From the NCBI GenBank assembly GCA_045863855.1, contig BTVV01000001.1, positions 64,001 to 128,000 of the forward strand: a stretch of 64,000 bases of DNA, written 5' to 3'. This document shows, piece after piece, positions 20,663-27,231 of this stretch. Both the position numbers and the translations under genes were made by a program. The stretch comes from Planctomycetota bacterium. GTDB taxonomy: Bacteria; Planctomycetota; SZUA-567; H5-PLA8. Numbering within the stretch: position 1 is the first letter of the stretch; every line of letters starts with the position of its first letter. Below the pieces are notes generated by a model that worked only from the letters and a program-made list of their open reading frames with translations, was not told the origin of the DNA and searched no databases.

Positions 20663-22123
20663 TCAGCGGCGCGGGGCAGCGCCTTGCGTCACGGGACCGG
20701 GTTGCGGCGCCGGCGCGGGGTTCGCCGCGGCTTCCGGCGCTCTATTGGGATCGGGGACGGGCGCAGTGGTCACGACGGTCTGCGCGCCGCTGCTGACCTC
20801 GACGCGGACGGCTTCGGTGGAGGTGACGACGGCCGAGGCGCCGACCCATTGAGCGTTGACGTTGGGGAGGAACGGGAGCGGGTCACCGGCATCGAGCTGG
20901 ATCTGAAAGGCTCGGACGGGCGCCTCGGAAGACGGATCGCCCTTGATGAAATCGACGGTCTGGAGCGCGCCCAAGGTGGATTCGAGCACTTTGCGTAAAT
21001 CGTCGCGCGGTTCGGTCTGCGCGCGATGGGCGCGAATCCGAGCGAGTATGGCTTCGACGGATTTCGCGGGCGCTGCGGCCTGCGCGGGCTCCGGGTTCGG
21101 GGCGTCGGCGGCGTGGGAGGCTTGCACGGCGAAGACGGCGGCGGCGAGGGCCAGCGCGGTAAGACGTTGACCGGAAGGCATGGCGATGCTCCTTTCGAGC
21201 GGGGGTGCGGGCGGCGGTGCGCGTTCCGGAACAGGGCCGGAAGGCGCGGACGATACGGGTTGCCGCGGGTCGAGGACGGGTTCGGGCGCGGCGGCGCGAA
21301 CGGTTCGGTTTCGATACTCGGCGGGCGCGTAGAGTGCCAGAGGCAGCGCGGCTGCGGCGAGGAGCACGCAGGCGGCGAGCATCGGGGCGCTTAGCTTCGC
21401 GGCGGCGGGTTGGAGCGGGTCGCGCGGGACGTGCTCGCGCGGGACGGGCGACAGTTCGCGGCAAGGCGCACCGGGCAGCGCCGCGTCGAGCCGGACGGCC
21501 AAGGCCGCGGAAGCGGCGGGCGGGGCCTGCGCGGCGAGCTCCGCGGCGATGCCGGATACGGCGAGCGTGACGCCGGCGCGGTTGAGCTCGGCGCGGAGGC
21601 GTTCGAGCGCTCGGCGCAGCCGGCCGTGGAGCGTCTGGCGCGGGAGATCCAGCGTCTCGGCGGCTTCGTGCAGGCGCAAACCTTCGAGGTAGCAGAGGAC
21701 CACGGGCAGGCGCAGCTCGTCGGGCAAATCGTCCACGGCGGCGCGGAGGCGTTCGCGCGTCTGGGCGTCCGGCGGCGCGTGCATGGGGTCTCCTCCGGAA
21801 AGCGCGTCGCCGTTTGCGTGGCGCAGCGCCAGATGGCGGCGTTCGGCGCGGCGTTGTCCGCGCAGCGCGTTGAGGCTGCATTGGAGCGTGGCGCGGTAGA
21901 GCGCCACGCGAAACGCGGCGAGGGATTCGAAGCCGGCCGTCCGCGACATGAGCTTGAGGCACGCTTCCTGGACGGCGTCTTCGGCGGCCGCGCCTTCGTG
22001 GAGCACGCGGTACGCGACGGCGTACGCGCGTTCGCGGTGCAGCTTGAGCAGTTCGCCCAAGGCCGCGCCGTCGCGAGCGTGACGCCAGCGTTCCAAACGG
22101 TCGACGAGATCGGCTTCCGTCAT
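20663..22123 (-). CDS. ECF sigma-70 factor with long C-terminal membrane/extracytoplasmic extension
   Basis: region 2 (AYAVAYRVL, AEDAVQEA), region 4 (LPDELRLPVVLCYLEG, AAETLDLP, RLRRALERLR), then a TM helix. Confidence 0.85.
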   Translation of the reverse strand: MTEADLVDRLERWRHARDGAALGELLKLHRERAYAVAYRVLHEGAAAEDAVQEACLKLMSRTAGFESLAAFRVALYRATLQCSLNALRGQRRAERRHLALRHANGDALSGGDPMHAPPDAQTRERLRAAVDDLPDELRLPVVLCYLEGLRLHEAAETLDLPRQTLHGRLRRALERLRAELNRAGVTLAVSGIAAELAAQAPPAASAALAVRLDAALPGAPCRELSPVPREHVPRDPLQPAAAKLSAPMLAACVLLAAAALPLALYAPAEYRNRTVRAAAPEPVLDPRQPVSSAPSGPVPERAPPPAPPLERSIAMPSGQRLTALALAAAVFAVQASHAADAPNPEPAQAAAPAKSVEAILARIRAHRAQTEPRDDLRKVLESTLGALQTVDFIKGDPSSEAPVRAFQIQLDAGDPLPFLPNVNAQWVGASAVVTSTEAVRVEVSSGAQTVVTTAPVPDPNRAPEAAANPAPAPQPGPVTQGAAPRR

Positions 22124-22443: not shown

Positions 22444-23325
22444 TTACGCTTCCGGAAAGTCGATCCGGGCGAAGAGGCCGCGGCTGGCCCAGTCCTGAAA
22501 CCACGCGCCGACGTTTGCGGCGAGGCGTTCGAGGTCGGTCTCGGGCCGGTCGGCGAGGATCTCGAGGGCTTCTTCGAGGGTCTGTCCGTCGCGGAGGGCG
22601 TTCAAGAGTGCGTAGCCTTCGCGATCGAGCTGCAAGCGGTAGACCGAGAATTCTTTGCGGTAGACGGCGACGAAATCGTGCTTCGGCGCGGGGACGGGCG
22701 GGCATTCGCCTTTGCGCACCGCGGCGATGTACTCGTGCGCGGGGTAGCCGCATTCGATCAGGCGCAGCGCCGGGATGGTCTGGACGCGCGCGCCGGCCCA
22801 GCGTTCGGGCGGCACGCCGAGCAGATCGTCAAGCTTGACGGGTTCGGCGCGCCGTTCGTCGAAGACTTCCTCCATCGCCCACTCGATGGCCGCGACGTCG
22901 GCCAGGAAGGCCGGTGCGGGCAACTCCAGATCGCCCGTCTCGTGGCGCAGGAAGCTGCTGAAAGGTATGCCCAGCTTGCCGAGACTCCAATGCTTCGACG
23001 GATGCCTATCGAGGTAGCGTTCGACGATTCCGCGGAAGAGGTCTTTTCCGACCGCGCATTCGACGGTGGGGAAGTCCATCTGCATGATCTCGAGGAGGCG
23101 CCAGAAGTAGGCGTTGGCGTAGACGTCGAGGCGTTCTTTGGCGGAGAGTCGTTTGGAGCGATCGACGACGCACTCGAGCTGTTCGAAGGGCACGTCGATA
23201 TGCTTGCGGGCGGCATCGGATTCGACGCCGGCTTCGACGCCCTTGGGATGGGCGACGACTTCGAACATCCAGCGCTGCAAGGCGCCGAGGTCGAAGGGTT
23301 CGGGGCGCGCGCCGGGGCGGCTCAT
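22444..23325 (-). CDS. DUF2063 MNIO partner protein (BufC/HvfC-like)
   Basis: [14 protein letters not shown]...[25 protein letters not shown] overlap with the DUF692 stop. Confidence 0.85.
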
Positions 23326-24176
23326 GAGTTCACCGCCACGTCCTTGCGGAAGCGTTCGGCGCGCAGCGCTTCGTTGTGGACATCCTGGAAGCTGGGAATC
23401 TTGTCGTCCCATTCGAGCAGCGTGGCGCGCCCGCCGGCGCGTTTCATCACGTCGGCGTAGAGCGCCCAGACGGGATCGATGACCGGGCCGTCGTGCGTAT
23501 CGATGCAGTGCGTGCCTTTGTCGGTGTGTCCGGCGAGGTGAATCTGGACGACGCGGTCGTAGGGGATGCCGTCGAGGAACGCCTGCGGGTCGCCATCGTG
23601 GTTCCGGCAGCTCACGTAGACGTTGTTCACGTCCAGCAGGAGCGCGCAATCGCTGAGTTCGCACAGCCGCGCGATGAATTCCTGTTCGGGCATGGTGGAG
23701 CTGGCGAAAGTGACGTAGGTGCTGGGATTTTCGAGCACCAGGGGGCGTTCGAGGATGTCCTGCACGATGCGGACGCGTTCGGCGACGTGCTCGAGGGAGC
23801 GCTCGTTGGTCGGTATGGGCAGCAGGTCGTGGCTGTTGAGCCCCGCGACGCCGGTCCAGCAGATGTGGTCGCCGACCCAGCGCGCGCCGATGCGGTCGGC
23901 GAGCTTCTTGAGGCGGGCGAGGTAATCGCGGTCGAGCGGATCGGTGCTGCCGATGGAGAGGCTGACGCCGTGCATGGCGATGGGGTAGCGTTCGGCGACC
24001 TGTTCGAGCACGTACAGGGGGCGGCCTTCGGTGTGCATGAAGTTTTCGGAGATGATCTCGAACCAGTCGACGGGCGGCTTCTGTTCGAGGATGTGCGAGA
24101 AGTGGAGCGTGCGCAGTCCGACGCCGATGCCAAGATCGGGCAGTTTCCAGCGGTTGGGAATCGGCATGCGTTTCAC
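23322..24176 (-). CDS. DUF692 multinuclear non-heme iron oxidative enzyme (MNIO, BufB-like)
   Basis: [57 protein letters not shown]. Confidence 0.95.
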
Positions 24177-24186
24177 CTTATTATTA

Positions 24187-24223
24187 ATAAAGCAGGCGCG
24201 CCGGGTATGAATCCCGGCGCGCC
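24187..24223 (-). terminator. leaky terminator / mRNA-stabilising hairpin between precursor and MNIO
   Basis: 11-bp stem GGCGCGCCGGG/CCCGGCGCGCC (24195-24223) followed on the minus strand by TGCTTTATT. Confidence 0.65.
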
Positions 24224-24239
24224 CGATGCGGCGAACCGG

Positions 24240-24632
24240 TTACTTCTCGGTCTTCTTCACAGGCACGGCGCAGCCGCCCTTGCCCTTGCAGCTGTTCTTG
24301 CCGGCGCAACCCGCATCGCCGCTCTTGCAGCCGCCCTGGCCCTTACAGGCGTTGTGGCCCTTGCAGCCGTGTTTCTCGGCCGTGGCGCAGCCGCCCTTGC
24401 CTTTGCATTCGTTCTTGCCCTTACAGGCGTTGGCGTCGGTCTTGCAGCCGCCCTTGCCCTTACAGGCGTTGAGGCCCTTGCAGGCGTTCTTGGCCGCTTC
24501 TTCCTTCTTGGCCTCTTCTTCCGCCATCAGCGGGCGCGCCACGCCGGCTACCACGCCCAGCGCCGCCGCCGCCATCAGCCGCTTGCCGAATTCGCGGCGC
24601 GTCTGGCCGGACTGCTCCTTACGTTCCTGCAT
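24240..24632 (-). CDS. Cys-rich RiPP precursor (BufA2-like bufferin-type) with Tat signal
   Basis: TRREFGK twin-arginine motif plus hydrophobic stretch; four C-K/A-G-x-N-x-C-K-G-x-G-G-C repeats (12 Cys); directly upstream of DUF692. Confidence 0.85.
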   Translation of the reverse strand: MQERKEQSGQTRREFGKRLMAAAALGVVAGVARPLMAEEEAKKEEAAKNACKGLNACKGKGGCKTDANACKGKNECKGKGGCATAEKHGCKGHNACKGQGGCKSGDAGCAGKNSCKGKGGCAVPVKKTEK

Positions 24633-24854
24633 CTGTCTCGCCTCCTATCGATAAGGCACCTCACGTTACGGCTGGCGCACACGCGCCGACCGGGTCTGGA
24701 CCCCGATCAAGCCGATACCGTGCTGACCCACAGACCTCAGATACCTGCTCTGATGTAATGGGGTGTGGTGACTATTCATTTCATTCTGCGGGCCGGAACG
24801 GGCACTGTCCAGTCTTTAGTTGCGCGCGGACGGCGCCGCGCCTCATTCCTAACC

Positions 24855-24882
24855 TAATTCCATAACTCCAGTTATGGAATTA
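24855..24882. other. perfect 28-bp palindrome; dif-like site or operator
   Basis: TAATTCCATAA-CTCCAG-TTATGGAATTA: 11+6+11 layout with CATAA-N6-TTATG core. Confidence 0.5.
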
Positions 24883-25792: not shown

Positions 25793-27070
25793 TTAGCTCT
25801 TCGCGGCCTTCTCGAGGGCATCGAGGGTCGCGGCGGTGGGCCGCACGATGGGGATGCCGCAGCCGCGCGCGTGGACGGCCTGCGCGCAGATGCCCAGGGC
25901 CCGGCTGAGCGCGAAGAGGACCGTGTAGTAGTTCTGTTCGGTGAGCCCGTAGTGGCACAGCAGCGATCCCGAAGCGGCATCGACGTTGGGCCAAGGGTTC
26001 TTGATCTTGGGGTGCTTCTGCAGGACTTTGGGCACGGCCTCGAAGACGTTGAGCACGGTCTTGAAGACCGGGTCTTCCGGGCAGCGCTTCTTGCCGAATT
26101 CGACGAAGCTGGTGAAGCGCGGATCGGTGACGCGCAGCACCGCGTGTCCGTAGCCTGGAATGACGCGCTTGGCGGCGAGGGTTTCGTCGGCGAACTGCGT
26201 GATCTGCTGGACGGTGGGCACGCCGCCGAATTTCTTCATCACGCCCTGGATCCAGGTGAGGCATTCCTGATTGGCCAGCCCGTGAAGCGGTCCGGCGAGT
26301 CCGTTGAGGCCCGCGGAGAGCGAGTAGTAGAGATCGGAGAGCGCGGAGTTGACGGTTGCGGCCGCGTTGGCGCTGACGTTGCCGCCGCCGTGGTCGCTGT
26401 GCAGGACGAGGTAGAGGCGCATCAGTTCGGAGAGCGCGCCGCCGGGATCGGCCAGGCCGAGCTGGTGTACGAATCCGCCGGCCCAGTCCTTCGCGGGATC
26501 GGGCGGGATGCGCGGGCCCTTCTTGAAGCTGCGCCGGTAAATGTACGCGCACAGATCGGGCAGGCGCGCGGTGAGCGTCAGCGCGTCTTCGAAGGTGGCT
26601 TCCCAGTACTGGTCCTTGGGCATCTCGTCTTCGTAGCGCTGGAAGAAGAGCGAATCCTTCTGCATGGCCAGGATGCCGATGCTGAGCACGGTCATGGGAT
26701 GCGTATCGAGCGGGGTGGCGTCGATCACCGGCCAGACGTAAGCAGGCACCTCGCGGCGGGCTTTCCATTCGTCCTGGAGGTCTTTCAACGCGGCGGGATC
26801 GGGAAGTTTGCCGACGAGGAGCAGGTAGAAGACTTCTTCGGGGGAACGTCCGGCGAGATCGCCGATGGGGTAGCCGCGCAGGATCAGGCCCTTTTCGGGC
26901 GGCACGCTGGAGGTATCGCAGAAGAGGCTTTTGATGGAACGGGAACCGCCGAAAATCTGCCCCAGCGTGACCTGATCGACGACCTTTTCCCCGTGGTTGG
27001 CGAGCAGCTTCTTGATGCGCTCGTTTTCCTCGGCCAGGACCTTGCGCAGGGTTTCTTTCAGTGCTCCCAC
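25793..27070 (-). CDS. gltA: citrate (Si)-synthase, eukaryote-type
   Basis: HSDHGGGNVS, LAGPLHGLANQE, PGYGHAVLRVTDPR, NPWPNVDA; GTG start after AAGGAG. Confidence 0.9.
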   Translation of the reverse strand: MGALKETLRKVLAEENERIKKLLANHGEKVVDQVTLGQIFGGSRSIKSLFCDTSSVPPEKGLILRGYPIGDLAGRSPEEVFYLLLVGKLPDPAALKDLQDEWKARREVPAYVWPVIDATPLDTHPMTVLSIGILAMQKDSLFFQRYEDEMPKDQYWEATFEDALTLTARLPDLCAYIYRRSFKKGPRIPPDPAKDWAGGFVHQLGLADPGGALSELMRLYLVLHSDHGGGNVSANAAATVNSALSDLYYSLSAGLNGLAGPLHGLANQECLTWIQGVMKKFGGVPTVQQITQFADETLAAKRVIPGYGHAVLRVTDPRFTSFVEFGKKRCPEDPVFKTVLNVFEAVPKVLQKHPKIKNPWPNVDAASGSLLCHYGLTEQNYYTVLFALSRALGICAQAVHARGCGIPIVRPTAATLDALEKAAKS

Positions 27071-27231
27071 GGATGGCTCCTTCTGCGGCACGTCATGGTT
27101 TCGAAGCGGCGAGCGGAGGAGGGCATACGAGCGAACATCGAGATTCCCCCCGGATGAGCTACAGATTAGTCACGCACGGGGATTCTGCCACGGTAGATTC
27201 GGCGGAAGCGTCCGTTTCGGCTGGAGGAAAG

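Follow-up and report, generated by a model that had tools for sequence, protein, structure and literature searches.

The window analyzed here, a 64,000-nt stretch of a Planctomycetota genome, holds a three-gene cluster with an apparently unreported signal of the twin-arginine (Tat) type, found on a branch of Buf2 precursors, and a compact cysteine spacing. By its profile matches, the locus is a Buf2-family bufferin cluster, and apart from the signal and the spacing it is a typical representative of a large family already in print. We consider it fairly probable that a Buf2 subclade spread across five phyla uses Tat to export its RiPP precursors, whether soluble or lipid-anchored, and thereby avoids export before modification. 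For the cluster itself, we lean modestly toward a Buf2 operon in which most cysteines would be converted to copper-binding 5-thiooxazoles in the cytoplasm, after which the peptide would leave by Tat rather than Sec.

The three genes lie on the minus strand, and their positions, the precursor length, and the coupling of the DUF2063 gene are as the earlier note had described them. The bufA2-type precursor gene (24240–24632; 130 aa, 12 Cys; NF050166) has an AGGAGG site 8 nt 5′ of its ATG. It is followed by a bufB-type MNIO (DUF692) gene (23322–24167; 281 aa) and a bufC-type partner gene (22444–23325; 293 aa), which encodes DUF2063 with an RRE-like C terminus and whose ATG overlaps the MNIO stop codon as ATGA. 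The precursor scores 67.3 bits against the NCBIfam BufA2 model NF050166 (cut-off 60), a score summed over two stretches and covering only positions 4–71 of the model's 79; 19 of the 36 proteins scanned, with and without a twin arginine (RR), pass this cut-off. The MNIO reaches 360.9 bits against BufB NF050167 (cut-off 310) and E = 2e-107 against Pfam PF05114. The partner matches DUF2063 (PF09836; E = 3e-16, 59.9 bits, cut-off 27.2), with weak matches to NGO1945_C and PqqD, below cut-off, in its C terminus, and a relative 94% identical to it is labelled Planctomycetes. None of the HvfB, HvfC, ApyH, ChrH, or MbnB cut-offs was reached in an NCBIfam scan of the cluster. The enzyme is the sole MNIO found in the genome and has the aligned His, Asp, and Glu motifs typical of MNIOs. 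Its W-D-D at residues 253–255 lies in LEWDD, whose D254 and D255 align with LERDF of 3BWW; as placed through this 3BWW alignment, D255 is the FonB-Phe250 site, which adjoins the catalytic Asp. An Asp at that site marks Cys-Lys enzymes such as BufB2 (PMC13097082). The BufA2 and BufB scores bear out the earlier reading of an MNIO–DUF2063 RiPP cluster of the bufferin kind. By the same token, because both precursor and enzyme pass those cut-offs, the architecture largely matches one already characterized, an outcome that the earlier note had named as counting against its reading.

The cysteine core (24270–24482, minus strand) consists of two compact six-Cys units with 5-5-6-5-5 spacing, amounting to four C-x5-C-x5-C repeats at precursor residues 51–63, 70–82, 90–102, and 109–121. 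The 12 Cys follow the spacing 5-5-6-5-5-7-5-5-6-5-5, and the repeats and Cys count quoted in the earlier note are exact in the translation. The pattern is not a matter of chance, because the Cys positions are invariant in an alignment of 96 sequences and the spacing 5-5-6-5-5-(6–8)-5-5-6-5-5 is exact in 102 of the 120 homologues listed out of 6765. In L103 and L106, two precursors of the canonical type that span the full BufA2 model, the spacing is 5-5-6-5-12/13, so that the CysV–CysVI distance is 5 in the query precursor versus 12–13 in these. Single six-Cys copies of the compact unit also occur behind non-RR signals (L042 and L088). An Ala follows Cys6 in 106 of 111 cases and Cys12 in 65 of 111, and it follows Cys4 (92/111) and Cys10 (94/111) as well. 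Since the spacing is compact and Ala also follows Cys4 and Cys10, the modified positions are not readable from BufA2. AlphaFold models only the signal helix of the precursor (mean pLDDT 49; 39–48 in the core, values that cannot show disorder either), and our search found no solved structure related to the precursor. For Buf2, a strand/helix fold like that of BufA1, closed by a CysI–CysVI disulfide, would be expected.

Twelve cysteines are not in themselves a novelty. In Buf2, for which BUF_6/12Cys is the family name, 90% of precursors contain 6 Cys and the others 12, as duplicated units (PMC12452194). We therefore rejected the 12-Cys form, which makes up ∼10% of published Buf2, as a distinguishing feature, and the multivalency that the earlier note offered as a new variant is already in print (PMC12452194). 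Its suggestion that the product may be uncharacterized holds insofar as no characterized product with this 12-Cys spacing was found in the bufferin and MNIO literature searched, although the family itself is known.

The main departure from published Buf2 is the signal peptide (residues 1–37; 24522–24632, minus strand), which would be cleaved after A37. Its motif, T-R-R-E-F-G-K (residues 11–17; 24582–24602, minus strand), is present as first quoted and is conserved among relatives. RR stands at residues 12–13, with F15 and K17; an h-region of about residues 20–32 contains G26 and G30, and the c-region has a basic R33 and then P34. RRx[FL] occurs just before the h-region in 87 of the 120 homologues listed of the 6765 that pass E 0.001. 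Among these 87 listed RR homologues, F is invariant, K occupies the last motif position in 65, and the position of the consensus Leu is T, N, A, S, or G in every case. That position is hydrophobic (L, F, or I) in 3 of the 63 precursors of an enzyme-anchored set. Within the host genome, 1674 crudely called proteins have a hydrophobic N terminus; 9 of them, the query included, carry RRxF there, and Leu is present at the consensus position in 6 of the 8 others.

Because the homologue search had been seeded with the signal, we recounted on loci found through the enzyme. Four duplicates among 110 such loci were dropped to leave 106, from which we removed 17 without a recovered precursor, 9 with a different, signal-less Cys protein, and 2 with a broken N terminus. 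The remaining 78 scorable loci comprise 55 RR and 23 non-RR, two of the RR labels having been assigned by hand. RR signals have the less hydrophobic h-regions in this set (medians 1.85 versus 2.23; 53 versus 23 rows) as in the homologue set (1.98 versus 2.28). They are also richer in Gly (0.26 versus 0.14) and poorer in Leu (0.16 versus 0.23) than non-RR signals, and a basic c-region residue is present in 59 of 75 non-lipoprotein RR signals versus 9 of 15 non-RR. Weakly hydrophobic, Gly-rich, Leu-poor h-regions and a basic c-region are what is described for Tat signals, in whose motif only the arginines are essential and F is the next most conserved residue (PMC7317946).

Profile models of Tat signals respond weakly to this branch. 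The query precursor matches neither TIGR01409 nor PF10518 and has a weak match to TIGR02811 (E = 0.07). In one scan, none of 28 RR proteins passed TIGR01409, with 3 matching below its cut-off, and 10 of the 28 matched TIGR02811 weakly; neither model matched any of 8 non-RR proteins. In a second scan, 1 of 6 RR proteins passed TIGR01409, and PF10518 was matched weakly by 4 of 96 sequences. A strict TATFIND-like pattern matched 1 of the 87 RR signals, a result that does no more than restate the polar residue at the Leu position. Such a residue need not break recognition, since in a TatBC–MdoD structure the two arginines and F contact TatC whereas the Leu and Lys positions face lipid (PMC13323110). 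The host genome encodes a tatC and two tatA/B genes, and its TatC keeps the H..E and F......E motifs, as judged by eye. Of the claim of Tat export made in the earlier note, the RRxF element stands as real and conserved, but the TIGR01409 and PF10518 models are not passed. We conclude that RRxF marks what appears to be a real, clade-wide Tat-type signal and that Tat use by the query precursor is likely, judging from its sequence. The signal also appears to be unreported: no mention of Tat or twin arginine was found among the top-ranked matches in the bufferin and MNIO literature, mostly open access, and the spreadsheet supplements of PMC12452194, one of them incomplete, contain no mention of Tat, twin-arginine, TATLIPO, or SignalP.

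The distribution of RR on a tree of the MNIOs (a quick IQ-TREE result with a midpoint root) is clustered, with 4 changes versus a mean of 20 for shuffled labels. All 55 RR rows fall with 4 non-RR rows in one MNIO group (SH-aLRT 83), and the RR-bearing subclade spans Planctomycetota, Acidobacteriota, Verrucomicrobiota, Gammaproteobacteria, and Myxococcota. About three losses after a single gain would fit this pattern, gain and loss not being separable on a tree that lacks a true root. Since there are only 4 changes, the contrasts between RR and non-RR loci in RR itself, hydrophobicity, and Cys number mostly reflect one lineage. TatC does not discriminate, because a match is present in 52 of 55 RR genomes and in 22 of 23 non-RR genomes, the misses falling in incomplete genomes; its near-universal presence made it uninformative as a test of co-variation. 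About 16% of Buf2 precursors are lipoproteins (PMC12452194). At several loci, two RR precursors that differ in Cys number or in anchoring (soluble versus lipobox) lie near one MNIO (L007, L017, L018, L038, L039, L050, L052, and L059).

Several related groups were seen alongside. Apparently degenerate twin-arginine motifs occur on otherwise typical precursors, namely KGAF in L006:262-678, GKDF in L088:2117-2395, and KKGDL in P0010/P0025/P0069-type proteins; these are natural controls for a switch from Tat to Sec. A second RR subfamily with about 9 Cys (L026, L030, L053, L060, L067, L072, L073, L076, L077, and others) has a conserved C-terminal tail and, in L073, the spacing 5-10-5-7-5-5-8-5. 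Its members score 22–31 bits against BufA2, far under the cut-off, and sit in their own MNIO branch (26 rows, SH-aLRT 99), which includes the cultured Blastopirellula marina. A different type of precursor is represented by Cys-rich proteins of about 170–460 aa that show no clear signal peptide and are encoded close to related MNIOs, chiefly in Bacteroidota (L091, L093, L095, L098, L099, L100, L104, L105, and L111).

The strongest competing explanation, which we nonetheless regard as unlikely, is that the precursor is an ordinary Sec-exported Buf2 and that RRxF is a leader element retained by descent, which TatC does not read; it could, for instance, be where the DUF2063/RRE partner binds and masks the signal until modification has finished. 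This would account for the failure against TIGR01409 and PF10518, for the systematic polar residue at the Leu position, and for degenerate forms that lose RR and retain F, as with KGAF in L006 and GKDF in L088. Sec export is indeed described as a hallmark of bufferins, Buf2 included, and the published Buf2 sets described as Sec contain Planctomycetota and Acidobacteriota entries (PMC12452194); preliminary data also place the Buf1 signal peptide within the BufBC recognition sequence (Antoine et al., PMC12452194). A leader element of this kind is, however, hard to square with the finding that modification in co-expression does not depend on the Buf1 signal (Leprevost et al.), or with enzymes of the RR subclade that, among the enzyme-found loci, also occur and work with non-RR precursors. 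Moreover, Tat selects for neighboring arginines followed two residues later by F, together with a weak Gly-rich h-region and a basic c-region, and paired Arg is rare among E. coli Sec signals (PMC7317946). We retain Tat export as the preferred reading of the signal.

Why the branch would use Tat is a separate matter. One answer is that the 12-Cys peptide, once modified, becomes folded or metal-loaded while still in the cytoplasm and, unable to pass Sec, requires Tat; this pathway generally transports folded proteins and turns away most that are unfolded (PMC7317946). In keeping with this, precursors with at least 8 Cys are found at 54 of 55 RR loci versus 6 of 23 non-RR loci. That contrast, however, rests on about one gain of RR (4 tree changes), and there are counterexamples in both directions. 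Four 12-Cys precursors lack RR, two inside the RR group (L006, of the query's own family, and L041) and two outside it (L080 and L086), and RR paralogues with 6 Cys occur at L018, L038, and L039. As the non-RR relatives with 12 Cys show, a core of this kind can do without Tat; a requirement for Tat imposed by high Cys number was rejected as phylogenetically confounded and contradicted by these cases. Bufferin disulfides are, in addition, thought to form in the periplasm (Leprevost et al.), and the core has no confident fold, with the reservation on low pLDDT given above. We therefore judge this folding explanation improbable, and the earlier proposal that the product is folded before export finds no support in a core with pLDDT of 39–48 and in 12-Cys cores that also sit behind non-RR signals.

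Because a 12-Cys core does not require Tat, we favor timing as its role. Tat export is strictly post-translational, and a precursor that avoids Sec could remain in the cytoplasm long enough for the enzyme to finish many modifications. Premature Sec export before modification is complete has been named by the field as an open problem (PMC12452194).

The flanking sequences suggest how such an operon might be expressed. Transcription would start from a sigma70-like promoter candidate, TGGACA-17-CAGAAT (24783–24811, minus strand), whose first hexamer and spacing are conserved in both other genomes of the genus. Between the precursor and enzyme genes, a GC hairpin followed by a U-rich run (24193–24225, minus strand) is more stable than expected (z = −4.1; 0 of 200 shuffles as stable), and a stem of at least 9 pairs occupies its place in 62 of 70 related loci, a count made without a shuffle control. 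It is likely a partial terminator or stabilizer that would keep precursor RNA in excess over enzyme RNA. RNA runs contained at most 0.21 of the sampled words and give no evidence on expression or on the hairpin. About 45 nt upstream of the promoter candidate is a perfect AT-rich palindrome with 13-bp arms (24855–24882). No second copy turned up in the genome when up to 6 mismatches were allowed, and none of 1000 shuffles yielded one of 10 bp. The scan of upstream regions recovered it only in the nearest genome, G066, where the arms are conserved and the surrounding bases differ; G313 lacks it. The palindrome is possibly the site of a regulator, perhaps a metal-responsive one; with no second genomic copy, it was rejected as the site of a regulon.

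The neighbors of the cluster are rsmA/ksgA, citrate synthase, an ECF sigma factor, and an M42 peptidase. The ECF sigma gene (20663–22123, minus strand), which has a long C-terminal extension, lies 320 nt downstream; it had no match at the locus in any other genome, where flanks were short, and was set aside as a dedicated regulator. The citrate synthase gene (25793–27091, minus strand) lies directly upstream of rsmA/ksgA, and its product matches best PRK09569 and the eukaryote-type TIGR01793 (471 bits, below the TIGR01793 cut-off).

After translation, the MNIO and its DUF2063 partner would convert 8–10 Cys to 5-thiooxazoles in the cytoplasm, by analogy with C. vibrioides Buf2, whose mature form shows a loss of 18 Da, with Cys I and VI unmodified and each central Cys changed by −4.03 (Leprevost et al.). 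The modified precursor would then be exported by Tat and, if the C. vibrioides case is a guide, cleaved after A37 to give a 93-residue periplasmic product of 9185.3 Da (unmodified monoisotopic mass), with disulfides forming after export in the periplasm. Transferring the Buf2 pattern to this core would give 8 thiooxazoles and 2 disulfides (−36.3 Da). An alternative with 10 thiooxazoles and 1 disulfide (−42.3 Da) is possible because the spacing of the final Cys in each unit departs from that of canonical-type BufA2. On the same analogy, the mature product would buffer copper; the thiooxazole peptides described in PMC13097082 and PMC12538549 bind Cu. This function is not guaranteed, because the mmr genes of the related Microbulbifer cluster are not copper-induced (PMC12538549). 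A bufferin-like chemistry serving some other metal or stress is nevertheless very improbable, since the lack of a copper gene in the 8 ORFs scanned near the cluster, the Microbulbifer case, and MerC fusions that suggest other metals (PMC12452194) must be set against the copper binding of these thiooxazole peptides and the response of C. vibrioides buf2, which Cu induces whereas Fe, Zn, and Mn do not (Leprevost et al.).

Export by Tat may be relevant in several respects. First, should the RR branch prove to use Tat, a large fraction of the Buf2 precursors from the environment has been assigned the wrong route, and RiPPs would gain a second general export pathway. No natively Tat-exported RiPP was found among the top-ranked matches in the mostly open-access literature searched. 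Second, Tat would explain how a precursor that already bears a signal stays inside the cell until it has been modified, a question of timing that could be tested by a simple signal swap. The switch can be tested directly with natural relatives that have lost RR and retain this 12-Cys core, and a same-family pair with an identical type of 12-Cys core is at hand in the query, which has RR, and G205, which does not. Cultured carriers also exist in Blastopirellula marina and Rubritalea tangerina. Finally, since engineered Tat export for lanthipeptide display was tried without success (PMC5686179), a natural Tat-exported RiPP would be useful.

It is useful to set the cluster beside the systems it most resembles. 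Like bufferin 2 of Caulobacter vibrioides (bufA2B2C2, CCNA_03001-02999), it has three genes, no DoxX, and a putatively cleavable N-terminal signal. A scan of 8 ORFs covering the cluster and its surroundings gave no DoxX match, and the 3 DoxX genes of the genome are all on other contigs. The earlier description of a DoxX-less variant is thus correct but not new: the C. vibrioides buf2 operon lacks bufD, the DoxX gene (Leprevost et al.), and the absence of DoxX was rejected as a novelty. Since 12 Cys and the lack of DoxX are both already in print, neither sets the cluster apart. The published genome table places Buf2 in Pirellula, Planctopirus, Gimesia, and Acidobacteria (PMC12452194). The query precursor shares with this family its N-x-C-K-G motifs and passes the family cut-offs. 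Unlike published, Sec-described Buf2, its signal has RRxF and a Tat-like make-up, and unlike the canonical-type BufA2 of L103 and L106 (5-5-6-5-12/13), its units are compact.

Two further MNIO systems share parts of this design. The captophorins of the Cys-Lys group resemble the cluster in pairing an MNIO with PME1/DUF2063, in multiple Cys-Lys motifs, and in the Asp at the FonB-Phe250 site, whereas the captophorin products fontiphorin, oxazolin, and gonophorin have Lys-Cys EGKCG repeats (PMC13097082); export, signal peptides, and Tat are not discussed in the available text of PMC13097082. Oxazolin (HvfABC) is likewise a repeat-rich exported MNIO substrate with a DUF2063 partner. It differs in that the query precursor has no EGKCG repeats, the query MNIO scores 250.5 against an HvfB cut-off of 360, and the partner 49.1 against an HvfC cut-off of 142. 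Finally, set against bacterial Tat signals (SRRxFLK), the query signal has Gly in place of the consensus Leu and does not pass TIGR01409 or PF10518, but it shares with them RR, F, K, a polar first position, a basic c-region residue, and a weak, Gly-rich h-region, with Gly 13 and 17 residues past RR.
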